Of a stretch of DNA of 41,648 bases, positions 2,578 through 41,179 are shown piece after piece (within the stretch, counting starts at the first letter, position 1; each line of letters opens with the position of its first letter). The notes under the pieces are model-generated. The model did no database searches. It was not told the origin of the DNA and saw nothing but the letters and a program-made list of their open reading frames with translations. Origin of the DNA: a virus. Lineage: Duplodnaviria > Heunggongvirae > Uroviricota > Caudoviricetes. The translations under genes were made by a program, and so were the position numbers. The stretch lies in IMG/VR virus record IMGVR_UViG_2541047962_000003; one strand, 5' to 3'.

Positions 2578-3151
2578 CGTCCGGCGCTGTGCTGGTATCT
2601 GTTGCCGTCACCGCGTCAATGTAATCCAGCACAGCGTTAAGTCGGGTGTTTTCTGGCTGCGTCAGCTTCCGCCCAGCCTGTAATTTCAGTTGAATCAGAC
2701 TGATGGAAGCCATTGCAGCATCAATCAGCGACTGGCGCTGTGCTTCTGCCGCTTCTACTGCGGCGCTATGCTGTGCCTCGGTATCGGTCACCCATTTCTC
2801 ACCATCCCATTTATCGTATGGCGTTAATGGGGCGATAGTGGTTGTATTTTCGGGGTAATCACCCGGAGTTGTGATTTCTTTGGCGTCTCCCGTTTCGGTG
2901 TTATAGACGATTTCTCCGCGATGGTCTGGCACATATTCCCATGAGTTTAAATCCGCAGAGCGGCAGATGGCATAACCAGCTTTATATGTTCCTGGTGCAT
3001 CTAAACAGGAACATGCCGGAATACCGACACCAACAGCAAGATATTCAGTTGATGTGGAAATATATTCTCGTGTTTCACCATTATAATTATAGACAGTAAT
3101 ATCCCCCGCCTTCGTGGCAATAAACTCGCTATTTAATACGGCATTATCCAT
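2549..3151 (-). CDS. Tail-fibre assembly protein (expressed cassette)
   Basis: 200 aa, immediately downstream of the tail-fibre gene. Tfa-like. Confidence 0.75.
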   Translation of the reverse strand: MDNAVLNSEFIATKAGDITVYNYNGETREYISTSTEYLAVGVGIPACSCLDAPGTYKAGYAICRSADLNSWEYVPDHRGEIVYNTETGDAKEITTPGDYPENTTTIAPLTPYDKWDGEKWVTDTEAQHSAAVEAAEAQRQSLIDAAMASISLIQLKLQAGRKLTQPENTRLNAVLDYIDAVTATDTSTAPDVIWPELPEA

Positions 3152-4014: not shown

Positions 4015-4676
4015 GCCCCTAGATCAAAACCACTGATAAATTCGTTATCCATATCAAAACCAAAAAATTTTGAACCTTCCGATGGGGTTTCCACCGAAGG
4101 TGTTTCAATGCCACCCGCCCACACCCCGGCGGCTTTTACTGTGAGATATCCCTGTTTAATTGCAGCAATTAACTCACGCGATACATCTGAAATATCAGTA
4201 TCAGGAAAGACCCAGACCGATATCGTCATGTCCTGGTTATCGACAATCTGCATTCGCAGTCCGGATCCTGCTGTTGCAGCGTCAAGGATTGCCGGAAGCG
4301 AATCATTCCGTCCGTCCCAGTTATTAATCGCAATCTTCGCTTTAAGAATGACACGATAAGTTTCATCGCTGAGATACATGTATCCTGAATCAGGATCATA
4401 TGGCCCCTGCCATACCCCCTGATCATATCCAAGCCCGTCGGTATCCCAGCGGAAATAGACACCTGAGATAGGCTGGCTGACAACACGGCTACGTCCGATC
4501 CACAATCCAAGAATGTCAAGTTGCACACCAACCGCAGAGTCAATATCAAATACAGTAATCAGCCCTCTGGTGGCAGCCGCAACATCAATAAGCGGCCGGG
4601 TCATCAGATCAACATGTGCAAGAAATTTAGGTTTGGTGGCGTGGTAGTTCGTGATTAGTTCGGTGTATTTGCTCAT
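3996..4676 (-). CDS. Tail protein (YmfQ/DUF2612-like)
   Basis: 226 aa, between the baseplate J gene and the tail fibre as in e14 (jayE-ymfQ-stfP). Confidence 0.55.
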
Positions 4677-25752: not shown

Positions 25753-26175
25753 TTATGCCGCCGAGCAGCTCCTACGCAAAGTCCTGATAGCCTGAGGCTT
25801 TGACTGAACCGACTGATCCATTTCGAGCACCACATCCAGCATGGCTAAGCAACCGTCAATAAATCCCTCTGCCGCCTGAAGCCTCTTCAGAACGTGGGTG
25901 TGAGATACGCCGAGCTTCTCACCCATCGCCCGCACGGGCATGGCCTGGACGTAATGCCACTCAAGGAGCGTGCACAGATACGGATCTTTTTTCTTCAGGC
26001 AGCTCATAGCGGAGTTGATGATAAGACCGTCATTGTCACTGCATTTCAGCCTTCCAGACTGCGTCGCGGGTAGCAGATTCTTAAACCCGGCTGCAACAGG
26101 AGGAAAGTAGACGCTACCACCTTCACTCGCTGCCCAGCCACCCCAGCGCTCTAAAACCTGTTGAATATTACGCAT
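25753..26175 (-). CDS. Q: Late-gene antiterminator Q (phage 82/21 type)
   Basis: 140 aa. N-terminal ...VLERWGGWAA... motif characteristic of this Q family as recalled. Located upstream of the lysis cassette. Confidence 0.75.
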   Translation of the reverse strand: MRNIQQVLERWGGWAASEGGSVYFPPVAAGFKNLLPATQSGRLKCSDNDGLIINSAMSCLKKKDPYLCTLLEWHYVQAMPVRAMGEKLGVSHTHVLKRLQAAEGFIDGCLAMLDVVLEMDQSVQSKPQAIRTLRRSCSAA

Positions 26176-26299: not shown

Positions 26300-26490
26300 T
26301 CGGCCTGTACCAACCTGTACCCACCTGTACCAGCTCTTTTCAAACCTTTTCCCCAAGCGACTTATACATATATATGGGGTTCTTAGTAATTAGGTTGGTA
26401 CAGATGGTACAGTTGGTACTGACCTTTAAATTCAATTAGTTAAAATGTACCAACCTCTATTTTGAGGCTGGTACAGGTTGGGACACCGCC
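26300..26490. repeat. Putative replication origin: cluster of 10-bp iterons (TGTACCAACC / GGTTGGTACA) in both orientations flanking an AT-rich core
   Basis: Direct repeats TGTACCAACC, TGTACCCACC, TGTACCAGCT at 26306-26335. AT-rich stretch 26336-26393. Inverted copies GGTTGGTACA, GATGGTACA, GTTGGTAC at 26394-26419. Further copies at 26446-26455 and 26467-26485. Confidence 0.6.
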
Positions 26491-28649
26491 TCAAAAATTC
26501 GAGTCATTTTCCCCCCAATTCGCCTTTGGGCACGCTTATACCCGCAATTTTGCAAAACATTACTAATTCGCATTTCTTCGCGTTTTCCGATGCGGTCAGG
26601 ATTTAGCCCAATCGCATCACGCAAAACATCACTTGCGCGTAAAAATTCGCAATCTCGCGGAAGTTCATTAGTCATCAGGTCTGGCGTGTCGAGCCATTTC
26701 TCTACCGTTTCAAGCCAAGCATCCTTGATGGTGTACTGTTCATGGACACTCGCTGCCAGTTGTTCAGCCTCACGGAACTGGATACCCCCCAGACGCTGAA
26801 ACACCTCACGAGCCTCAGCCCAAAGTAAAAGGAGATCTCTTTTTATCGCTTTCACGTCGACTTTCGACACTTCCACGGGGAGCCAGCGACGGTTACCAGT
26901 CTTGTCCGCAAGGAATTCGTCCTCATTGGTGGTACCAACGAACACCAGGCGACGAGGAAACTGGGTGGCGAACTCCCGGTATTTCGGGATCCAGTTTTCG
27001 TGAGTACGCGTCACAAACGCTTTGATTGACTCCAGCTCTTTGGTATTAAGTCCGCGCAGTTCACCAATCTCTGCCACCAGCCGACCACGCATTTTTCGAG
27101 CGAGATCATCGTCTTTTTCGGCAAAAGAGATTTCAGTAAAAAACGCAGGATCAGGGCTCAGTGCCTCCACTCCGGAAGACTTACCGCAGCCCTGCGGACC
27201 AACGAGGATCGGCACCATATCCGCTTTGATGCCTGGCTCCAGTACTCGCCCCGCCAACGCGGTCCACATGTACATAGACACCGCACGGGTATAAGGCGTG
27301 TCGGCGGTACCGAAGTGCGTATGGTAGAAACATTCGATGCGCGGCACCCCATCCCACTCCAGTCCGTTCAGCCAGGCGATCGCTGAATCGAATGGTTGTT
27401 CATCGGCTGCAAGTAACACCACATCGCGAATAAGTTCACGGCCAACAGGTTTAAATCCCCGCTTTTCCATCGTGATGCGCAGGCGCGCATAATCCGCATC
27501 GGTGAATGCCCGCCATTGTCCGGATCCTGCCGGGGCAAACATGATTTCGTCGCGGAACAGGTCAAAGCGAATATCGATGTCCACAAAATCAGGGCGTACT
27601 ACTGCTTTGGCTGCGTTGCTGATGGTTGCCTCGATACGCCCCCATTTATCACGCTCGAAAGCAGGCAGCGGTAAAGGTTCCGCCACTTCGGTGCTGGTCA
27701 GATCTTCGAAATCGTCGTTGCGGATCCCGATGGCATTAAGGAAATCTCCGTCATCACGATGCGCACAACTGGCATGCAGGCATTTAAAATGCCCCTGCTC
27801 AAAGCCCGCGGTTCCCGCAGGAAAATAAACTGTGCTTGTTGGATCGCCCCCGCTACTGTGGCCGTCTTCAAACGGACAGCGGATATATCGTTCACCATTT
27901 GCACCATCCAGCAGCGTCCAGCCATTGGCATCAAGATATTCAGCTGTATCATCCGTCGCGCCGGGCGTGAATGCTGATCGGTCGCGCATCTTCGTGTTGC
28001 CCGCTTCGGTGGTTACCGACACAGGGAGTTGTTCAGCCAGGCGCTGCCACAGCGTTTCAAGCTGCTCACCAGTAATAGCCGGAGGTTCATCCGGCAAACC
28101 GCCGTCCCATTCAATACGCGCGCCGCTGCTGTGCGTACCGCAGGCAACGAACTGCTGCCCGTTCGCCAGCAACTCGATAATGCCCATATCCCCCGCCAGG
28201 CGATGGATACGCTTACGGAAATCACCATCAACGGCCAGCAGATACAGACACTTATTACTGTTTGCTCGCCAGCGTCGTGGCGGCAACTCACCCAGAAGTT
28301 GCACAAGCGTTTTACGAATATCTGCCTGAATGTCTTCATCTTCGCTATCACAGTCCAGCGCCAGCCAGCCATGGCCTGTACGCACGCAGATGCCATAATC
28401 CGGTTCATTCGACCAGCGGGCAAAATCATGCTCAGTAACAACATGCCCGGTCCATTGAGCAATACCGGTGACCTGGCGGTCCCGGTTATAGCGACTCGGC
28501 GTCTTACCCAACGCTTTCAGTTTACTATCAGGGGATATGGTCGCACCGGGGTTACATACAACTGGCAGAAGATGATCAGTTCTCCCCAATACCAGGTCGA
28601 AATGAAACCACTCATCAGGCGTAGCTCCCCATGGTTTGCTATCGGACAT
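26457..28649 (-). CDS. DNA primase/helicase (D5/P4-alpha-like, with Walker A motif)
   Basis: 730 aa. ...VGPQGCGKSS... P-loop in the C-terminal half. Translationally coupled to the cro-like gene. Confidence 0.8.
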   Translation of the reverse strand: MSDSKPWGATPDEWFHFDLVLGRTDHLLPVVCNPGATISPDSKLKALGKTPSRYNRDRQVTGIAQWTGHVVTEHDFARWSNEPDYGICVRTGHGWLALDCDSEDEDIQADIRKTLVQLLGELPPRRWRANSNKCLYLLAVDGDFRKRIHRLAGDMGIIELLANGQQFVACGTHSSGARIEWDGGLPDEPPAITGEQLETLWQRLAEQLPVSVTTEAGNTKMRDRSAFTPGATDDTAEYLDANGWTLLDGANGERYIRCPFEDGHSSGGDPTSTVYFPAGTAGFEQGHFKCLHASCAHRDDGDFLNAIGIRNDDFEDLTSTEVAEPLPLPAFERDKWGRIEATISNAAKAVVRPDFVDIDIRFDLFRDEIMFAPAGSGQWRAFTDADYARLRITMEKRGFKPVGRELIRDVVLLAADEQPFDSAIAWLNGLEWDGVPRIECFYHTHFGTADTPYTRAVSMYMWTALAGRVLEPGIKADMVPILVGPQGCGKSSGVEALSPDPAFFTEISFAEKDDDLARKMRGRLVAEIGELRGLNTKELESIKAFVTRTHENWIPKYREFATQFPRRLVFVGTTNEDEFLADKTGNRRWLPVEVSKVDVKAIKRDLLLLWAEAREVFQRLGGIQFREAEQLAASVHEQYTIKDAWLETVEKWLDTPDLMTNELPRDCEFLRASDVLRDAIGLNPDRIGKREEMRISNVLQNCGYKRAQRRIGGKMTRIFEAVSQPVPASK

Positions 28650-28652
28650 GGG

Positions 28653-28865
28653 TTAAGCCTTTTTATCGTTTTGTGAGCCATACAACAGCCAATTAGGGTC
28701 GCAATCCAATGCTATAGACATTTCAAGAAGATAACGTGGCCGAGCAATAACACCACTTTCAATTCTGTTTATTGCCTGCTGGCTCACTCCTGTGAGCTCA
28801 GCCAACGTAACTTGCGTCATTTTGAGTTCTTTACGTCGTTCTTTTACTCGGGTCGCTAAGGTCAT
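28653..28865 (-). CDS. cro: Cro-like helix-turn-helix regulator
   Basis: About 70 aa. ...QVTLAELTGVSQQAINRIE... helix-turn-helix. ATG at 28865 preceded by GAGGTG. Divergent from the CI gene. Confidence 0.7.
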   Translation of the reverse strand: MTLATRVKERRKELKMTQVTLAELTGVSQQAINRIESGVIARPRYLLEMSIALDCDPNWLLYGSQNDKKA

Positions 28866-28883
28866 TGCTTTCACCTCATACAA

Positions 28884-28985
28884 TTTTAGTGGTATTTAGC
28901 AACAACAAACGAGGTTTGTCAAATACAACAAAAATTGTTTTTAATGTGGAGATACACATTAATACAACCCAGAAGGACTAATCCC
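28884..28985. promoter_or_regulatory. Divergent immunity promoter/operator region with three palindromes
   Basis: ACAAAC-gag-GTTTGT (about 28904-28919), AACAA-aaa-TTGTT, and TTAATGTG-gagata-CACATTAA (about 28940-28961), between cro and cI. Confidence 0.55.
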
Positions 28986-29609
28986 ATGTCTCTCGCAGCC
29001 CGTTTTAAAGCACGTCGTTTGGAATTAGGAATGACTCAAGTGGAAGTAGCGAATTCTGCAGGGGTTAGCCAACAATCCATAGAATCCATCGAAAGTGGAC
29101 GAACCAGAAAGCCACGCAATCTTCTGGATCTGGCTAAGGCCTTGAAATGTAGCCCAGACTGGCTACTGAACGGTAAAAATATTATGCCTCTCGCGGAGAT
29201 AAGTACCAGACGCATACCTATATTAAGTTACGTTCAGGCAGGAGAGCTTACAGAAGCAAGAGACATAACAGATCTGACAGGGGAATTTGAATATATTTTG
29301 GCAGACTCTGACATTCCAGAAACATGCTTCGCATTACGTATCGATGGCGACAGCATGCAACCAGAGTTTAAAGAAGGAGACATTGTTATCATCGATCCTG
29401 ATCTATGTCCTGCACCAGGGGAGTTTGTTGTCGCCAAAAACGACGGTCACGAAGCTACATTTAAAAAATACCGTCCATTAGGAATCGGCATCGACGACTT
29501 TGAATTAATCCCCCTAAATCCTGATTACCCTATTTTTCGTAGTGCAGATATGAACTTACAGATCATAGGTGTAATGATCGAACACCGTATTTACCGCCGT
29601 AAACGTTAG
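28986..29609 (+). CDS. cI: CI-type repressor (N-terminal helix-turn-helix plus C-terminal LexA/S24-like autocleavage domain)
   Basis: ...QVEVANSAGVSQQSIESIE... helix-turn-helix and ...GDSMQPEF..GDIVIIDP...KK... in the C-terminal domain. ATG at 28986 preceded by GAAGGA. Confidence 0.85.
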   Translation: MSLAARFKARRLELGMTQVEVANSAGVSQQSIESIESGRTRKPRNLLDLAKALKCSPDWLLNGKNIMPLAEISTRRIPILSYVQAGELTEARDITDLTGEFEYILADSDIPETCFALRIDGDSMQPEFKEGDIVIIDPDLCPAPGEFVVAKNDGHEATFKKYRPLGIGIDDFELIPLNPDYPIFRSADMNLQIIGVMIEHRIYRRKR

Positions 29610-29931
29610 TATTCCCACCGTAAATATCGGGAGGCGTAACAGCCTCCCTTACCCCATTTGTAAAGTCTTACAAATTAAATTCACTTAAATATCAATAAAG
29701 TAGTATTCACACCCCACAAAATACCACATTTGTGGTTTACACAATACAACTCAAATTGTATCTTTAGCCACAAGTCGAACGGCGCGACTCTAAACCATGC
29801 GTCGGGACCGTGGCGGGACAGGATGTCGGCAATACGGGTCAGTAAGTTCCCTTTGGGGTGCGGCGAAGCACTGTCTACTGATACAAGTCGAAGCTGCCGA
29901 ACCACCAAAGTGAACTGAATGAGGAAACGGC

Positions 29932-30126
29932 GTGAAAACGTATAAACCGCTCAAAGGTGAATGCCCTGCTTGCCAAACACAGCTTCAGACACCAAAGCCA
30001 AAACGATACCAAATCAACGAATGTTATGAGCACTGCCCTGGATGTGGTGCTTTCCTGCATACCATTGCAACGCACTGGCGTGTCCGCTTCAACCTTGTGG
30101 TACCACGTACGCACAATACCAACTGA
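29932..30126 (+). CDS. Small zinc-ribbon protein (64 aa, two CxxC pairs)
   Basis: GTG start preceded by GAGGAAA. CPAC...CPGC motifs. Followed by a strong terminator. Confidence 0.45.
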   Translation: MKTYKPLKGECPACQTQLQTPKPKRYQINECYEHCPGCGAFLHTIATHWRVRFNLVVPRTHNTN

Positions 30127-30157
30127 ATCATCCATGTAATTGCTGTGTGTAGTCTTT

Positions 30158-30183
30158 GCCCGCCGCAAGTGACGGGCTTTTTT
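30158..30183 (+). terminator. Rho-independent terminator
   Basis: GCCCG-ccgcaagtga-CGGGC followed by TTTTTT. Confidence 0.65.
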
Positions 30184-30242
30184 ATGTCTGAAAGCGCACT
30201 CGCAACAGCGCGCTCCCCGATATGAAAAAAGGAATACAACCG

Positions 30243-30392
30243 ATGAAACCTGAACACCTCTATCGACTGACGGGGCGCGATGTTCTCCGTTATCGCCGTA
30301 AAAACTTCGATTTGATGACCGGTCTGGCCGTTGCCACTGCGCTCGGTCTGATCATCACTTTCATTCTCCTTGTAGCGAGGACCACAGTATGA
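30243..30392 (+). CDS. Small membrane protein (49 aa, C-terminal transmembrane helix); below the ORF-track size cutoff
   Basis: Hand-translated as [57 protein letters not shown] ribosome-binding site. Stop overlaps the next start. Confidence 0.4.
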   Translation: MKPEHLYRLTGRDVLRYRRKNFDLMTGLAVATALGLIITFILLVARTTV

Positions 30393-31291
30393 GTTTAGAA
30401 ACCAGTCTCGAACTTAATAATCAACTTCTGGCACAACATAATGCGCTGCTTGAACGTCTTATCCGCACAATGGCATCAGGTATTGTTATGCATCCTGACA
30501 CGATTTCACGAGTGCAGGAATGTCGGGATACAGCAACTGAAACTGAAAATATGTCAGCGGCAATGACACTGGATGATCTGGAGTTCAGCGACGTTATCGC
30601 ACTGGCTGGTTTCTACCCGGTAGCCACCCCTATCACAGAAGACATGCTGCAACGTGCTGTTGCCTACCGTGATGCTGAAGGCGATAAACGAGTAGTTCAG
30701 ATTGATGCTCTCGACAGCGCATTGCAGGGCGTCAAACGAGCCAGGGCGCTGCTTAAACCAGCTCTCCTGGACCTGTCCCGTAACATCCTTAAGTTCTGGG
30801 ACGACCTGCCAACCATCGGCGAGCGGCGTGCTTTTGCCGAGCAGCTACTTGATGCACCTGCGGATGGGCGTGATGAAGTTAAGCCGAAAAAGGCCAGTAA
30901 CAAAGATGGAGAACGCACGGGGCCGTTTTACGTCAAAAATGTATCCGGCACAGCAGCCAGTGAACTCCACACCTTACGCAAGTTGAACGAGATGCTGAAA
31001 AAAGGCCATATCGAGATCAACCGTGTTGAGTACCTTCAGCTGCAGGAAGAATTTGCACGCAGAGACGCAGCAAATTCCAGCCAGAATAATGACGCCAAAG
31101 ATGACCATACAATTGATTTCGCGGCACTACGCAAACAAGCTGAAGGGTTGATCCTCCAGTTAGCAAAAGGGGGTTACCGGGCAGAAGCTATTGCAATTCT
31201 GGAAAAACAGGGAGCCAGGAAACTTGGTGAAGTAACGGATGAAAATCTCGCTGAAGTAATCACCCTGGCTGAAAAAGCACTGGAGGGTTAA
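30389..31291 (+). CDS. Hypothetical early protein (300 aa)
   Basis: First large ORF of the + strand early operon. No domain recognised. Confidence 0.55.
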
Positions 31292-33159: not shown

Positions 33160-33210
33160 AAATATTCATCCCCCAGCTACGTGCTGGGGTATCTCATGAG
33201 GGAAAGAATA

Positions 33211-33852
33211 ATGTCACAGCCCGTATTAACTAATCACCTTAAAACTCAAATCATCAATAACGCACTTGAGAAAGCGGGTATCCCCAAACGTAAATCAGCA
33301 CTACGAGCTGCTCGTGTTGAATGGGCCGAACGTGTTCGGCTTGCAGCTATCGGGGGCGTAGAGAAAGAAGCTGAAATATTAAAAAATATAAAAAAGATTG
33401 AATCCATGGTAACAAAAATCCCTGATTCATTAAAAACCAATAGTTCTTTAATTCGAAAAGATTGCTGCATATATCTCAATCTGGCTGGAGCCAGAGCAAA
33501 CATTTATTTCAATGGCAACTACAGAGGTTATGAATCAGGAGCCCCCGAGCATATTAATAAAATAGCACCTGCAGAATTTACTCTACTTGGCGAAGATCCT
33601 CTGGTAACGGAGTTTTATAGCTTTGATGCTCTCTACACACAAATTAAAAGTGATGAAACCGAAATCATACAGAACGTCAGCGCGGCTCTAAATAAAGTTC
33701 GGACAGTAAAACGATTACTGGATGTATGGCCCGAAGCTAAAGAACTGCTTCCAACAGACGCACCGCCAGTCCCTTTAGCACCAGCAGTACATCGAGAGAC
33801 ATTAAATGAAATGATAGGCCTTCCTACCAATACAGTGTCTGATACTCAATAA
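33211..33852 (+). CDS. Hypothetical protein, AT-rich
   Basis: ATG at 33211 preceded by GAGGGAAAG. No domain recognised. Confidence 0.5.
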   Translation: MSQPVLTNHLKTQIINNALEKAGIPKRKSALRAARVEWAERVRLAAIGGVEKEAEILKNIKKIESMVTKIPDSLKTNSSLIRKDCCIYLNLAGARANIYFNGNYRGYESGAPEHINKIAPAEFTLLGEDPLVTEFYSFDALYTQIKSDETEIIQNVSAALNKVRTVKRLLDVWPEAKELLPTDAPPVPLAPAVHRETLNEMIGLPTNTVSDTQ

Positions 33853-34535
33853 CAAGGGGGATGCTTATTATATGATTTTGAACGTTTTACAATCTCGTTA
33901 AGAGGCGTGAAATCAAAATCTCTGAATAACACATCAGGATACTTCGCTCTTGCTTTATCCAGCAAACCAGTTAAAGTATTTTTTGTGTTACCCAACATTG
34001 TATTAACCGCCACTACATGTCTAATTTCTGGAGGTTTATCTATACCACCAGAAATTGCTTCATTAAGAACCGACGCCAGTGGGGTTTGTCCCTTACTTGT
34101 TGAATCCCACAGCGTCATTAACAGACGAGCTGCGTCTATAAATAGCTTTTTGTCAGCATTTGGCTTGACAGTAATACCAGAACTACCTGAGCCAGAACCG
34201 GAACGTTCTATTGCTGCACTGGTATCCGATTTCATAGGATTAAATAACGGCAGCTCTGTACAACCGATACGCCGAATGAAATCCTTTGCAACATCTCTAC
34301 CACAGAAAAAAGCCCCTGTACAATTTTCATCAGAGCGTTTTTTAAATGAAAAACAATAGTACTGATCGGTTAACGGATAACCGGAATAACTGGTTTTAGT
34401 TTGTCCAGTAATAAGTTTCAGGTGTGCAACAGGCTGAATAATAAAATCCCGAACTATCGCATCTTTTATGTCGTTACCACGGTGACAATAATATTCAGGT
34501 AATCCATTAGGCTGTCTCTTATTACCCACAGTCAT
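33846..34535 (-). CDS. Hypothetical protein (229 aa) with Cys/His-rich N-terminal region and Ser/Gly linker; antisense to the early operon
   Basis: AT-rich. Convergent with the preceding gene (7-bp overlap). Divergent AT-rich promoter region shared with the polymerase gene. Confidence 0.5.
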   Translation of the reverse strand: MTVGNKRQPNGLPEYYCHRGNDIKDAIVRDFIIQPVAHLKLITGQTKTSYSGYPLTDQYYCFSFKKRSDENCTGAFFCGRDVAKDFIRRIGCTELPLFNPMKSDTSAAIERSGSGSGSSGITVKPNADKKLFIDAARLLMTLWDSTSKGQTPLASVLNEAISGGIDKPPEIRHVVAVNTMLGNTKNTLTGLLDKARAKYPDVLFRDFDFTPLNEIVKRSKSYNKHPPCY

Positions 34536-34596: not shown

Positions 34597-36660
34597 ATGT
34601 CCAATATACTATGGGGCGACCTGGAAACCTATTGTGACATTCCGATCAACAACGGTACCCATGCGTATGCCGAAGGCGTTGAAGTGATGCTTTTCGCATG
34701 GGCTATCAACGACGGGCCAGTAAACGTGTGGGATATCACTGCCGGTGGTGGTATTCCACACGGCTTATACGAAGCAATCGCAGACCCTGAAACCCTGCTT
34801 TATTTCCATAACTCTCACTTCGACCGCACCGTTCTGCGTTATGCAATGCCGCGACTGGCACCGCCAGTCGAACGTTGGCGCGACACGATGGTGCAGGCGC
34901 TGGCGCACGGTCTCCCGGGGTCTCTGGGGGAACTCTGCGAAGTACTAGGCGTCCCGCAAGACAAAGCGAAGGACAAAGAAGGTAAAGCGCTGATCCAGCT
35001 GTTCTGTAAGCCACGCCCGAAAAACAGCAAACTGCGTCGGGCCACCAGTAAAACCCACCCGGAAGAATGGCGGCGCTTTGTTGCTTACGCCGGACTGGAT
35101 ATCGAGGCAATGCGCGAAGTCTATAAACGTCTGCCGAAGTGGAATTATCAGGGGACAGAACTGGCGCTCTGGCATCGTGATCAGCAGATCAATGACCGGG
35201 GCGTCTGCATGGACATGCAACTCGCACGCGCTGCGATCGAAGCGGTAGACCAGGAACAAAAGCGCCTAGCAAAGCGTACACAGGAAATGACTGATGGCGA
35301 AGTGCAGGCAGCCACACAACGAGACGCGTTGATTAAGCACATTGTTGAATCCTACGGTGTGGAGCTACCAGACATGCAACGCAGTACTCTGGAACGTCGT
35401 ATTGCCGACCCCGATTTACCATCTGCCGTGAAAGAACTGCTGGCTATCCGCCTGCAGGCCAGTACTACCAGCACCAGTAAATACAAGGCACTGATGAAAG
35501 GCGTAAGCCACGACGGGCGCTTACGCGGTACGCTACAGTTCTGCGGGGCGTCACGTACCGGTCGTTGGGCCGGACGGCTATTCCAGCCCCAGAACCTTCC
35601 CCGCCCTTCACTAAAACAGGAACAAATAGACGAAGGCATCGAAGCACTGAAAGCCGGATGTGCAGACCTGCTGTTTGACAATATCATGGAACTAACCAGT
35701 TCAGCGTTACGTGGCTGCATTATCGCGCCAACAGGCAAAAAGCTGGTGGTAAGTGACTTGTCGAACATTGAAGGCCGTATGCTGGCATGGCTGGCGGGAG
35801 AAGAATGGAAACTGAATGCATTCAGAGAGTACGACGCCGGAACGGGTCCGGACTTATATAAACTGGCGTATGCAAAAGCTTTCGATATTGCACCAGATGA
35901 TGTTGATAAACACATGCGTCAGATCGGTAAAGTCATGGAACTCGGTCTGGGTTATGGTGGTGGTGTGTCGGCCTTCATCACTTTTGCACTGGTTTACGGT
36001 CTCGATCTCGACGAGCTGGCGAACGCCGCACTACCAAACATTCCCCGCGATGTTATCCGCGAGGCGAAAAGCTGGTACGACGAATCGGTTAAACGCAAGT
36101 CAACCTACGGGCTTTCTGAACGGGTATTTATCGCCTGCGACTCACTTAAACGTCTCTGGCGCAGGGCGCACCCGGCGACCTGCGATTTCTGGTACGAACT
36201 GGAGCGCACCGTCCGCACAGCAATCGCCACACCGCAAAAAACATTGTATTGCGGCTATCTTAAAATCCGACGTGATGGCGCGTGGCTGCGCATACAGCTA
36301 CCATCCGGACGCGCTGTATGCTACCCGTCTCCGGTTATCGAAAAAGGGAATATCACCTACATGGGTGTTAACTCTTATTCGCGTAAATGGCAACGACTCA
36401 AAACCTACGGCGGAAAGCTGGTGGAGAACGTCACCCAGGCAGCCGCCCGCGACGTTCTGGCCGGAAACATGCCGCTTATCGAAGATGCCGGTTACAGCAT
36501 TGTGTTGACGGTACACGACGAGGTGATCACCGAAGCACCTGACACAGAAGATTTCAACGATAAAGCGCTTTCCGCGCTTCTCTCCACTAACCCCGAATGG
36601 GCACCCGATATCCCACTGAACGCTGGCGGTTTTGAGGCGTACCACTACCGTAAGGATTAA
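34597..36660 (+). CDS. Family A DNA polymerase with 3'-5' exonuclease domain
   Basis: ...GDLETYCD... exonuclease motif, ...[16 protein letters not shown]... motif B-like, ...VHDEV... motif C. Confidence 0.85.
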
Positions 36661-36665
36661 CTCCT

Positions 36666-36881
36666 ATGTCATTTAAATACCGGGACAATCCACTTTATTA
36701 CAGGGCCGCAAGGGAGGCTTTGCGACTTGAACAATCCGGCGAATATGACCGGGCAGCGAAGGTCTGGGCAAAAGCCAACCGCGAATCACATCACGAATTG
36801 AATCAGGAATGGAGTGAACGCAGATCTGATTTTTGCCTGATGCAGAATATGCGTGAAAAGCGTAAGGTGGTCGAAGAATGA
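36666..36881 (+). CDS. Small hypothetical protein (71 aa)
   Basis: ORF translationally coupled to the downstream gene. Confidence 0.4.
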   Translation: MSFKYRDNPLYYRAAREALRLEQSGEYDRAAKVWAKANRESHHELNQEWSERRSDFCLMQNMREKRKVVEE

Positions 36882-37177
36882 TCGTTTACGTTGCCGGGCC
36901 GATGAGCGGTTACGAGCAATTTAACCGCCCGGCTTTTCATTCCGCAGCAAAGAGGCTAACGGACAAGGGATATGTTGTGCTTAACCCCGCAACTTTACCC
37001 GATGGTTTGACACAGGCTCAGTACATGGACATCTGCCTCGCCATGCTTCGCTGTGCCGATACGATTTATATGCTCAAAGAGTGGGAGTACTCTGCCGGCG
37101 CACGTGCAGAAAACGCGTTGGCAGAGAAACTGGAATTGAATGTGCTTTTTGAAGAGTGGGATTCAGATGGCCTATGA
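36878..37177 (+). CDS. DUF4406-like (nucleoside 2-deoxyribosyltransferase-like) protein
   Basis: ...VYVAGPMSGYEQFNRPAFHSAAKRL...VLNPA... matches the family signature as recalled. Confidence 0.55.
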   Translation: MIVYVAGPMSGYEQFNRPAFHSAAKRLTDKGYVVLNPATLPDGLTQAQYMDICLAMLRCADTIYMLKEWEYSAGARAENALAEKLELNVLFEEWDSDGL

Positions 37178-37436
37178 ACGTGAAAGCCTTATCGAAAAGC
37201 ACCTCGTCGCTGAAGTGAAAAAAGCTGGCGGAGTGGCCTTTAAGTTTGTATCTCCCGGTCACCGCTCGGTACCGGATCGCATTGTCCTGCTACCCGGTGG
37301 TCGTATCGTTTTCGTTGAATGTAAATCCCCCGGCAAACCACCACGGCCTGACCAGTTGCGCGAGCATGAACGTCTGCGAAAGCTGGGCTTTACCGTGGTA
37401 GTACTGGATAGCAAAAATTTAGAGGGGATATTGTGA
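37167..37436 (+). CDS. VRR-NUC domain nuclease
   Basis: ...GRIVFVECKSPGKPPRPDQ... motif. ATG overlaps the upstream stop. Confidence 0.65.
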   Translation: MAYERESLIEKHLVAEVKKAGGVAFKFVSPGHRSVPDRIVLLPGGRIVFVECKSPGKPPRPDQLREHERLRKLGFTVVVLDSKNLEGIL

Positions 37437-37441
37437 GACAA

Positions 37442-38167
37442 TCATTCTGAGCGATTTTTCTTGAGCTTAGAAGCTTTTAAAAAACATACTTTTAGTTGTT
37501 GTGTTTCTTTTATGCTTACAGGAATTAATTTCCCCTCAATTCCTTCGACACTCATAAATTCAGAGCTATTTTTTTTACAGTTCCCCAAGACAAATTTTCC
37601 GTTATAGCTTTCGATAATATAAGCATCATATTTTTTAGAATAAAAAAGAGGCTCATCTGATAAGTATGCCCATGCCCACCCAAGGACTGAAGGAAGCATT
37701 GCTATGGATATAAAAAACATAACCCCATGAGTTTTGTTTTTTATTCTAAATTCATTCCTAATAAAAACAGATACTGCCCTGACACTGATAGGGCTAATAA
37801 ATCCCAATAGTATTGCTTGGGTAGCCACATCCCTTATGGATTTTTCATAAAGGTATGAGCTACCGCCATATAAATACATTGTCCAGTATGAAAGCAAAGA
37901 GGCCAAAATGAAGAAAAATAAATACACCCCCCATGGAATATTCTTCTCTTCAGTATCAATATGCAGCAAAGCGACTAAGGTGCACAAAAGTCCTAATGCA
38001 ATAACAGAAAACTTAACTATTTCCTCAATCCCAATAGAAATAAAACTTACAGGGAATCCATAAAATGAGCTGTATCCTTTGTAAAAAGAAAAAGCCATAA
38101 AATAAAGGGCGGCCAAGAGAACCGTTGTAATTGATAAATCTTTTACATTCATGATGTTCAAGAGCAC
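37442..38167 (-). CDS. Polytopic membrane protein (241 aa), very AT-rich, antisense to the early operon
   Basis: Four to six hydrophobic helices. Inserted between the VRR-NUC and SNF2 genes on the opposite strand. Confidence 0.55.
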   Translation of the reverse strand: MLLNIMNVKDLSITTVLLAALYFMAFSFYKGYSSFYGFPVSFISIGIEEIVKFSVIALGLLCTLVALLHIDTEEKNIPWGVYLFFFILASLLSYWTMYLYGGSSYLYEKSIRDVATQAILLGFISPISVRAVSVFIRNEFRIKNKTHGVMFFISIAMLPSVLGWAWAYLSDEPLFYSKKYDAYIIESYNGKFVLGNCKKNSSEFMSVEGIEGKLIPVSIKETQQLKVCFLKASKLKKNRSE

Positions 38168-39582: not shown

Positions 39583-39779
39583 GCGAGAAACCCGACGATT
39601 TACTCACCCCGGATGAAGTATGCCAAAAGTTAGGTATTACACAGAAAACGCTATGTGAGTGGAATATTAAGCATCGTCATCGGGCTATCCTGGCACCAAT
39701 TCGTTTCAGTGCAAAAGTAGTTCGTTATGAGCGCCGAAATGTCGACGCTTTTATTCAAAAATGTCGCAGCCAGTATTAA
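39579..39779 (+). CDS. Excisionase / AlpA-like helix-turn-helix protein
   Basis: 66 aa. ...LLTPDEVCQKLGITQKTLCEW... Converges on the integrase gene. Confidence 0.55.
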   Translation: MSEKPDDLLTPDEVCQKLGITQKTLCEWNIKHRHRAILAPIRFSAKVVRYERRNVDAFIQKCRSQY

Positions 39780-41173
39780 CCTCGCCGCCGTAGCAATGCC
39801 ACCTGCGCAAGTATGCTCCGCTCGTGAGCCTCGAAAGCTTCGCGCTTCAACGCAATCTCTTCCTGTAAAATCTCATCAGAAAAGTCGTAATGTTCTGCCA
39901 TCGGGTCATCTGACTTGCTGGAGTGGTGAAGGCAAAGGAGGCTGATTTCCCTTCGGTCTGAGCGGGAATAGCCTCTTTCCTTCATCAAGGCAATAACATT
40001 GCTCTTAAGGAATTTACGGCACATCGTATTAAATGCACCGTCTTTCCCTTTAACAGTCCCATCATGTTTTATTCCTTTTACAGCCCCGTCCGGGCTGTAT
40101 GTTTTCACCAGCTTATCCAGTGATCGTTTTGAAAATGGCTGCATTGGATCACGTGGCTGCAAAAATACATAATCCCTGTTGCACTCAGGAACTGAATCAC
40201 GCCAGGCTTTCTGCTCGTCGATAATCCGCCGGATCTCAGGCGTTATCGGCAGGCGGAAAGCCTTTTGTGTTTTCATAGCCCCTCGCATGCCGATAACCCC
40301 TTCCGGATAAACAATTTCACCAGCCTCCTCGTGAACGTAATCCCAGCGCAGGTTATGGACATTAATCGGACGAACACCAGTGATGATCATGAAGCGAACA
40401 GCATTCTTCTGGTGTACAGAGGTGCAGGCAGCAACATTGAGCCAGAGTCGGGCGATTGATTCAATATCGGTAAAAAGCCGTGTGGGGGTGGGTTTCTGTA
40501 CGCGGGAGGAAACATAATCATCTGGCAGACTGGCGGCAACATTGCGGCCATTGCAAAGAGTAGGTGCGCAGAACTTCCAGAACCGACGGAGCTCGGCAAA
40601 CAACTCCAGGGCGTTATTGTTCGAGCGAGTGGCGATCCACTCGTCCAGCACTTCCACCAGCCGATTGTATGTTACGTCGCTGAACACCTCGCGCTCGCCG
40701 AACGTGGCTTTAATCCGGTCGATACGCACCCCGTAGGTTGTGAAACTGTCCGGGCTCAGCTTCTGCCGGGCGACTTTGGCTTTGAGGTCATCCCGGTACA
40801 TTTCCAGCGCTGCATGTACGGACTCTGCCCGCAGGCCACCGTCAGCCATACCTAGCGCTTTTTCGCGCGCCAGCTGGATAGCGAGCTCCGGCCACTCGCC
40901 GAGCTTTTTACCCTTGAGGCCCATCTTTTTTGGAAACTCGGCGTAAAATGTAACCTTACCGGCTTTGCTGAAATCGATACGGAGATAGTTCTCTTTTTCG
41001 TATTTGGAACGGCGAGCCACGCCGGAAGCAGCGAGGATGATTTTGGCGGCAGCAACACAGATTTTCATGTGTGCGCTGGTATAGGGGGGTTTACAGGCGT
41101 CCCATTTTTCAGATGCGGCTAAAACATCGTCATTATTGGGGCTATCCGGATTATGTGTTACAGTGCGCGGCAT
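39776..41173 (-). CDS. Tyrosine site-specific integrase
   Basis: ...ITGVRPINVHNLRWDYV... box I and C-terminal ...LHHSS...EHY. ATG at 41173 preceded by AAGGA. Confidence 0.8.
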   Translation of the reverse strand: MPRTVTHNPDSPNNDDVLAASEKWDACKPPYTSAHMKICVAAAKIILAASGVARRSKYEKENYLRIDFSKAGKVTFYAEFPKKMGLKGKKLGEWPELAIQLAREKALGMADGGLRAESVHAALEMYRDDLKAKVARQKLSPDSFTTYGVRIDRIKATFGEREVFSDVTYNRLVEVLDEWIATRSNNNALELFAELRRFWKFCAPTLCNGRNVAASLPDDYVSSRVQKPTPTRLFTDIESIARLWLNVAACTSVHQKNAVRFMIITGVRPINVHNLRWDYVHEEAGEIVYPEGVIGMRGAMKTQKAFRLPITPEIRRIIDEQKAWRDSVPECNRDYVFLQPRDPMQPFSKRSLDKLVKTYSPDGAVKGIKHDGTVKGKDGAFNTMCRKFLKSNVIALMKERGYSRSDRREISLLCLHHSSKSDDPMAEHYDFSDEILQEEIALKREAFEAHERSILAQVALLRRRG

Positions 41174-41179
41174 TCTCAA

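Follow-up and report, generated by a model that had tools for sequence, protein, structure and literature searches.

Sequence analysis of an Escherichia coli prophage early leader predicts a put-type antiterminator RNA and a terminator resembling the 3′ end of the host small RNA RprA

Introduction

In phage HK022, put (polymerase-utilisation) sites act in cis on RNA polymerase, through its beta-prime zinc-binding domain, and suppress terminators without phage proteins. The two sites, putL and putR, were reportedly described by King, Banik-Maiti and Weisberg. In phage lambda, rexAB occupies the interval from cI to pL and shares the cI transcript. Here we analyse positions 29610-30392 of a 41,648-nucleotide stretch of DNA (one strand of the Caudoviricetes record IMGVR_UViG_2541047962_000003 in IMG/VR; hereafter the window), a region that follows the cI repressor gene of an Escherichia coli prophage. 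An earlier note, made from the sequence alone, had taken this region for the lysogen-expressed equivalent of rexAB. We describe in it a predicted put-type antiterminator RNA and a terminator that resembles the last ∼47 nucleotides of the host small RNA (sRNA) RprA.

The targets of processed RprA were reportedly defined by Papenfort et al. in 2015 (PNAS). RNase E processes RprA to a shorter RNA (PMC6202311), which consists of the last 47 nucleotides, coexists with the full-length RNA and can by itself repress narP, by a route left unresolved (PMC9262595). Prophages are also known to encode anti-sRNAs, AgvB and AsxR (RF02702 and RF02703), which are abundant on Hfq and interfere with the sRNA networks of the core genome (Tree et al. 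2014, PMC4104026). The put antiterminator RNA of HK022 has been resolved by cryo-EM (PMC9378689).

Results

Positions 29610-30392 probably hold the control region and the leader for an early operon that runs away from cI, equivalent to the lambda pL operon. The order of its elements (repressor, operator-covered promoter, antitermination signal, small gene, terminator, early genes; Table 1) is that of lambda OL/pL-N-tL1 and of HK022 pL-putL-nun. Unlike lambda, the window has put instead of nut and N, an unrelated zinc-ribbon gene in the place of the small gene, and no rexAB-like genes between cI and the promoter. Most of the region can be accounted for by elements already known, OL/pL and put; what we consider worth pursuing is the RprA-like terminator.

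The operator motif ATACAA-N6-TTGTAT (at most one mismatch) is found at only three sites in the 41.6 kb, starting at 28878, 28923 and 29744. The first two lie between cro and cI, and the third overlaps the hexamers of a predicted sigma-70 promoter, the arrangement expected of an early promoter under repressor control. Furthermore, a 37-nucleotide direct repeat (family D1) joins the OR and OL regions, with 70% identity to 29723-29759. Since the motif is confined to the cro-cI and promoter regions, which also share this repeat, we take these sites to be the operators of the repressor. The TTTACA of the window (29736-29741) aligns column for column with the annotated −35 TTTACA of pL in HK022 and O276, and the operator region is near-identical in an Enterobacter relative whose repressor is of the same type. 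All three palindromes listed in the earlier note are in the sequence, namely ATTTGTAAagtcTTACAAAT (29656-29675), CCACAAA...TTTGTGG (29714-29735), which overlaps the weaker candidate operator at 29721-29738 and adjoins the −35, and ATACAA...TTGTAT (29744-29761). Transcription would start near 29770-29772.

Immediately downstream of this promoter lies a sequence that we assign, with high confidence, to a putative put-type antiterminator RNA. In a BLAST search against phage records, window positions 29760-29844 match the pL-putL segments of HK022, HK75 and O276 on the transcribed strand (79% identity), and in the annotated O276 record the matched part takes in the −10 of pL together with the antiterminator RNA putL. 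In the window phage as in HK022, put begins 16 nucleotides after the −10, in each case past a promoter adjoining the repressor gene. A three-way alignment of the window with putL and putR shows all the common motifs (GTCGGG, GGCG, AGGATG and CAAT) to be invariant. The Enterobacter relative is identical to the window over 29768-29850 (100% identity), and the sequence beyond diverges and contains an indel.

We then searched viral contigs with a pattern made from the motifs common to putL and putR. The pattern was found in 113 viral contigs as 51 distinct variants, in which stem changes are compensatory; in a scan of genome contigs, the matches outside Enterobacterales are mostly due to chance. 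Among 14 representative variants, the two sides of the lower part of stem II change together (GGGAGCGC/GCTGCTC, GGGTGCCC/GGTGCAC, GGGCACCA/TGGATGC, GGGTGCTT/AAGACAC and, in the window, the distinct variant GGGACCGT/ACGGGTC). The cells of this alignment are paired in 96% of cases, compared with 24-43% when the partners are slid, and the number of double-change cells is 21 as against 7.6 in shuffles; the observed covariation score was reached by 0/500 shuffles. Four stem II pairs vary on both sides, and stem I is uninformative for covariation because it is mostly invariant. These compensatory changes support the two-stem-loop layout of putL.

As in HK022, a terminator lies downstream (30158-30183, 318 nucleotides past put), and no N homolog is evident among the annotated early genes (Pfam, PGAP and PHROG). 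By homology with HK022 putL, the window put may be expected to have antitermination activity. There are also differences from HK022. The window phage has one copy of put, with no second, putR-equivalent copy found in the window. It is also not lambdoid in the manner of HK022; it has a VapE primase, a family A DNA polymerase, a DUF2800 nuclease, an Enc34-type single-stranded DNA-binding protein (SSB) and tail genes of the myovirus type.

The put sequence occupies part of a stretch of about 300 bp in which the earlier note had seen no convincing open reading frame (ORF). We likewise found none at 29650-29931, either in the ORF list or in comparison with relatives. Two candidates were rejected: a 38-aa ORF with an ATG start (29797-29913) begins within put and has a C-terminal half that shifts frame in relatives, and a 62-aa ORF overlaps put and does not preserve its frame in relatives. 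For this stretch the earlier note had suggested a promoter with operators, an sRNA or a cis-acting antitermination RNA. The first and the last were both right. The sRNA lead turns out to sit outside the stretch, at the terminator, whose likeness to the 3′ domain of RprA the note had missed.

This terminator includes 24 nucleotides, AATTGCTGTGTGTAGTCTTTGCCC, that are identical to RprA at 24/24 bases (AAUUGCUGUGUGUAGUCUUUGCCC in the processed 47-nucleotide form) and is then completed, as in RprA, by a hairpin, here of different sequence, and a U-tract. With BLAST, a 46-nucleotide match to the annotated rprA gene was obtained in 5,421 of 5,426 E. coli genomes. The match starts within 1-2 nucleotides of the 5′ end of processed RprA, and the A-U-U at the corresponding junction is kept, which presumably fits the preference of RNase E. 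The predicted fold, a small hairpin followed by a terminator, is that of the Rfam RprA consensus, and the flank before the hairpin coincides with the most conserved part of chromosomal RprA (the upper-case consensus of the Rfam alignment). Thus the phage element contains the conserved 3′ domain that makes up processed RprA, and it lacks the full three-hairpin architecture. In place of the rpoS-pairing region (AUCCCCUGAGUGAAACAACGAAUU) the window has CCAACUGAAUCAUCCAUGUAAUU, in which just CUGA and AAUU are left. On the chromosome, rprA has a locus of its own, where it stands alone between ydiK and ydiL under an RcsB-dependent promoter; the phage element lies in a prophage at the 3′ end of an ORF and would form the 3′ end of an early mRNA or leader.

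At Rfam gathering thresholds nothing was found in the window or in eight related loci, and the terminator was not flagged by a simple terminator scanner. There is no second RprA-like copy in the window. Other origins and identities were considered and rejected. An attP or integration-site origin of the likeness does not agree with an integrase 10 kb away, a prophage at yfhL and the presence of the element in a lytic phage. An identity with AgvB or AsxR was dropped as no match to RF02702 or RF02703 was found at E ≤ 10 in 29400-30500, and for the largest phage group (below) the AgvB score is 14 bits against a gathering score of 56. In E. coli genomes, matches to a 96-nucleotide query lie at 29 places, some of them on plasmids and others on chromosomes, and about 175 E. 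coli records have a copy of at least 90% identity, that is, a phage-type copy besides chromosomal rprA.

The RprA-like module is widespread in phages. At least 120 viral contigs contain the 21-mer TTGCTGTGTGTAGTCTTTGCC; among the matches listed, none of these copies has the chromosomal rprA flank, and about 30 upstream and 18 downstream sequence clusters surround the module in many combinations. In 133 of 134 module copies, a hairpin with a stem of 5 bp or more is found, with T4 or a longer T-run after it, and these hairpins are of about 40 different sequences. The stem thus covaries, and the flank does not change. Because copies found with the 21-mer are biased towards keeping it, we also picked loci by their downstream flank, independently of the 21-mer. 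The exact 21-mer was present in 38/50 and 43/46 of such loci, and the others differ from it by a single base, except one with a 2-nucleotide deletion. Some phage copies also keep AUCCCCUGAGU or CAACGAA, which come from farther upstream in RprA.

In the temperate contexts examined, the module is always on the transcribed strand, 240-1,100 nucleotides past a repressor gene of the helix-turn-helix (HTH) or HTH-S24 type and before the early genes. In phage LLS it is downstream of a promoter flanked by operator-like repeats, in Cronobacter phage phiES15 it is just before kil, and the same arrangement of repressor, module and early genes is found in about ten other contig groups. Similarly, the put variant of the window usually has the module downstream, at about 253 to 895 nucleotides (253, 327, 339 and ∼893). 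A lytic phage has the module as well: in the N4-like Erwinia phage Ea9-2 (L263 601-647) it comes right after the stop codon of thymidylate synthase.

The element could be a plain first terminator of the early operon, equivalent to tL1 and without any role in trans, with early expression dependent on put; we regard this as rather unlikely. The 5′ flank would then serve termination efficiency or transcript stability, and the identity with RprA would reflect descent of a terminator cassette spread by phages. The genuine hairpin and U-tract in 133/134 copies, the constant placement on the transcribed strand between promoter and early genes, the position past put, where one expects a terminator, and the lack of a target for the 21-mer in the phage all agree with this explanation. 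A fixed single-stranded flank of 21 nucleotides is unnecessary for termination, however, and the flank is near-invariant across some 30 upstream contexts while the stems come in some 40 versions. The explanation also does not account for the coincidence of the flank with the most conserved part of chromosomal RprA, nor for a match that starts so close to the RprA processing site.

Alternatively, the 21-mer and terminator might be a recombination linker between mosaic modules, used in swapping immunity regions or early operons and devoid of RNA function. The many combinations of upstream and downstream clusters could be read in this way, and so could the comparison with vB_EcoM-606R2, which with its relatives is the nearest sequenced phage (early operon 98.9% shared, immunity region different): the two sequences go from unrelated to 98.6-98.9% identity just upstream of the module. 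Yet some 45 nucleotides with a variable hairpin inside are short for homologous exchange, and neither the identity to a chromosomal sRNA nor the presence of the module after thymidylate synthase in a lytic N4-like phage without an immunity module would be explained. We thus consider a linker very unlikely.

That a single-stranded 21-mer is near-invariant beside stems and flanks that vary freely suggests that the RNA sequence as such is under selection. Its match to the part of RprA that is most conserved, and that is active independently, points the same way. The simplest reading would be an Hfq-binding RNA derived from early transcripts, either a mimic or a competitor of processed RprA. As far as our literature checks reach, the RprA-like terminator family is undescribed; no description of the phage element was found in the literature searched, where subscription papers are thinly covered.

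Several phage groups show further sequences around the module. In the largest group (L160 7380-7450, about 45 similar contigs; LLS, L225 4283-4350), CCGCCACAACAAAATCA is directly upstream of the 21-mer. The CACAACA found there is the consensus of the GcvB R1 seed target and the motif used by the anti-sRNA AgvB (PMC4104026). An RNA with CACAACA could be a GcvB sponge built on an RprA-type scaffold. Like AgvB and AsxR, the module would be part of a short phage-borne RNA in which the 5′ portion varies and the terminator module at the 3′ end is conserved. Unlike them, it belongs to a different sequence family, sits in an early leader rather than in the late moron site past pR', and copies a host sRNA rather than the target site of a host mRNA.

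In the strictly lytic Erwinia phages Ea9-2, Tellus, Frozen, Rexella and Gutmeister, AAATTGCTGTGTGTAGTCTTTGCCC followed by a hairpin and T6 is found directly after the stop codon of thymidylate synthase, where it partly overlaps an annotated 56-aa hypothetical ORF. Another leader element, ACCACC(G/T)CGCCTGATGTGGTTAAAAGCAGGC, is found just past the predicted early promoter of LLS (L225 3988-4020) and directly upstream of the RprA-like module in vB_EcoM-606R2 (L002 3086-3118). Both phages lack put, and the element might be part of another RNA antitermination signal. The authors of the LLS study noted the absence of an N homolog and guessed at RNA-mediated antitermination (PMC12315714). In LLS, another hairpin resembling a terminator lies at about 4042-4090.

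Two small ORFs flank the terminator, both of which the earlier note had listed. The upstream one encodes a 64-aa protein that has weak, sub-threshold Pfam zinc-ribbon matches and was not called by PGAP. Its homologs form only three clusters in 5.8 billion proteins (98, 89 and 76% identity), and none of these departs from the window at the four cysteines of its two CxxC motifs. The interval from put to the terminator (window 29841-30137; also L007, L088, L032, L069, L076, L019, L024, L030 and L117) appears as a cargo slot. Relatives that share the put variant of the window have nothing there or have the 64-aa ORF, a 69-aa ORF (beginning MRNHKMPKYKL...) or a 170-175-aa ORF with PHROG matches to RusA-like and processivity-factor families, and in one relative the zinc-ribbon ORF is frameshifted. 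The 64-aa ORF thus seems to behave as an exchangeable cargo gene in the position of lambda N or HK022 nun.

The downstream ORF encodes a 49-aa peptide, called by PGAP and assigned to phrog_11981 (E = 9e-37). Its stop codon and the start codon of the first early gene, which encodes a 300-aa protein, overlap as ATGA (30389-30392). It is conserved in vB_EcoM-606R2 and in the Enterobacter relative and accompanies the early operon regardless of the upstream immunity region. A 56-aa version starting at ATG 30222 was rejected: a 2-nucleotide deletion in the Enterobacter relative throws this ATG out of frame. Because the indel breaks the upstream frame and the 49 codons are conserved, we place the start at 30243. 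The hairpin between the terminator and the ribosome-binding site of this ORF is retained with changes in the Enterobacter relative, and its flank CTGAAAGCGCA is common to 48 viral contigs.

The view of the earlier note, that this is a lysogen-expressed accessory slot like lambda rexAB or, as one might add, HK022 nun, would make the zinc-ribbon protein, the 49-aa peptide or both exclude other phages. The cargo between put and terminator does differ among relatives, as in moron slots; HK022 nun has the same position and its own promoter; and the hairpin at the end of cI is not followed by a U-tract, so that some read-through from cI is conceivable. Such read-through would, however, extend through put and activate the early genes while the phage is lysogenic, a harmful outcome. 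The operators and promoter (29689-29764) precede both ORFs (29932 and 30243), and the promoter scan detected no internal promoter. Since both ORFs lie past the promoter and put, their position is that of lambda N or HK022 nun and not that of rexAB; unless there is an unseen internal promoter, it would be repressed in the lysogen. In addition, the 49-aa ORF, linked to the early operon by translational coupling, is conserved as part of it whatever the immunity region, and some relatives lack the zinc-ribbon ORF and one has it with a frameshift. The accessory slot is therefore, in our opinion, quite unlikely, and the rexAB equivalence fails as regards position.

The hairpin that the earlier note had placed at the cI stop is also in the sequence. 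It starts 20 nucleotides past the stop codon and is more stable than shuffled sequences (−16.1 kcal/mol, z = −4.3; 0/200 shuffles as stable), and an Enterobacter bugandensis relative (L226) keeps a hairpin of different sequence at the end of cI.

The prophage is integrated beside yfhL, as judged from gene order and from the match to E. coli FDAARGOS_144. The region described here has 100% identity with that strain and was found in 153 of 5,426 complete E. coli genomes. Features of the window are collected in Table 1.

Table 1. Positions of predicted features in the window, with the evidence for each
Feature	Position	Strand	Evidence or remark
Q-like late antiterminator	25753-26175		
VapE-type primase	26457-28649	minus	Pfam
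Cro-like HTH protein	28653-28883	minus	Pfam
OR operators, two ATACAA-N6-TTGTAT	28878-28895, 28923-28940	.	cro-cI intergenic region; pattern search
LexA-like cI repressor, HTH and peptidase S24 domains	28986-29609	plus	Pfam; stop codon 29607-29609
Hairpin at end of cI transcript, GGGAGGC-gtaaca-GCCTCCC	29629-29648	plus	sequence and fold; no U-tract after it
Weaker OL candidates	29689-29706, 29721-29738	.	putative; 3 mismatches each
Early promoter (pL equivalent), TTTACA, 17-nt spacer, TATCTT	29736-29764	plus	promoter scan; sigma-70
OL1, perfect ATACAACTCAAATTGTAT	29744-29761	.	covers promoter spacer and −10
Putative put-type antiterminator RNA, HK022 putL homolog	29780-29840	plus	BLAST, alignment, covariation
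64-aa zinc-ribbon ORF	29932-30126	plus	ORF list; GTG start, GAGGA ribosome-binding site
Intrinsic terminator with AATTGCTGTGTGTAGTCTTTGCCC	30138-30183	plus	hairpin 30158-30177, T6 30178-30183; resembles last ∼47 nt of RprA
Leader hairpin AGCGC...GCGCT	30193-30214	plus	fold; between terminator and ribosome-binding site of 49-aa ORF
49-aa single-helix membrane peptide	30243-30392	plus	ORF list; PGAP
Early operon: 300-aa protein, DUF2800 nuclease, Enc34-type SSB, Nmad5, family A DNA polymerase, VRR-NUC, SNF2 helicase		plus	
Integrase	39776-41179	minus	Pfam

In vB_EcoM-606R2, the immunity region is replaced (L002 2128-3015), with reverse-strand genes of 189 and 47 aa separating the repressor gene from the RprA-like module. 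The repeat CTGTAGGGGT(G/A) occurs twice there, at about 3035-3080, and may represent the operators of its other repressor. Two reverse-strand ORFs are also found inside the plus-strand early operon of the window, at 33846-34535 (229 aa) and 37442-38167 (241 aa); neither has a Pfam or PHROG match, and their placement is like that of morons or defence cargo. The early operon also encodes Nmad5 (a putative nucleotide-modification domain), a family A DNA polymerase, DUF4406 and VRR-NUC (33181-33852, 34597-36660 and 36878-37436), which together suggest that the phage may modify its own DNA.

Discussion

The control logic of the region can be outlined with reasonable assurance as cI on its operators, pL, a put-modified polymerase and read-through of the first terminator. 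In the lysogen, cI repressor bound to the ATACAA-N6-TTGTAT operators over 29736-29764 would keep the promoter off, and the hairpin at 29629-29648 would end or stabilise the cI transcript. Once repression is lifted, RNA polymerase would start near 29771 and transcribe the put RNA. To judge from HK022 putL, this RNA would form two stem-loops, bind the transcribing polymerase and make it resistant to terminators without a phage protein. The modified polymerase would then pass 30158-30183 into the 49-aa peptide gene and the replication and recombination genes. Polymerase that escapes modification would halt at the terminator and leave an RNA of about 410 nucleotides, which encodes the 64-aa zinc-ribbon protein and has a 3′ end like processed RprA. 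RNase E cleavage at the conserved A/UUGCUG junction, as in RprA, could free from it an Hfq-binding RNA of about 46 nucleotides. Early in the lytic cycle, this RNA might regulate the partners of processed RprA or vie with it for them.

A number of observations weigh against this picture. The single-sequence fold of the put region is no better than that of shuffles (z = 0.17), so that the case for its structure is a comparative one. In a permissive Rfam search, the RprA family (RF00034) matched with 48.2 bits (E = 1e-4), below its gathering score of 70, and just the 3′ ∼50 nucleotides align with high posterior probability. The first stem-loop of RprA and most of its rpoS-pairing region are absent from the phage element. 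The terminator stem has a C-A mismatch, in view of which the "strong" terminator of the earlier note is real but generously described. No promoter was detected by the promoter scan directly upstream of the RprA-like element, and no target for the 21-mer was found within the phage besides its own antisense strand. If put is efficient, few transcripts would end at the RprA-like terminator, which would limit the yield of the sRNA. Finally, conservation at a junction of mosaic modules could partly reflect recombination rather than RNA function.

With these points in mind, we put forward only tentatively, and at less than even chances, the idea that processed RprA has functional copies in many Enterobacterales phages, both temperate ones and one or more lytic ones, and that these RNAs are freed at the onset of lytic growth and load onto Hfq. 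The put RNA has a significance of its own. RNA antitermination of this type has been studied in HK022, and here it appears in the early operon of a phage with very different replication and tail genes; with dozens of put variants in viral contigs, nature supplies covariation data on a structure that has been solved a single time.

It is known that phage RNAs can sponge host sRNAs by mimicry of their mRNA targets. A phage copy of a host sRNA itself, made at the first lytic transcription, would be a different route of takeover. Such an RNA would either switch on the regulon of processed RprA or displace the host RNA, and the phage would thus capture a host circuit that controls envelope stress, biofilm and conjugation. 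With an RprA-type scaffold in common, such RNAs could gain further targets through the variable upstream sequence, for example through the CACAACA of the largest group. If this is true, the phage elements could also help to explain what processed RprA does in the cell, which was left unresolved for narP (PMC9262595).

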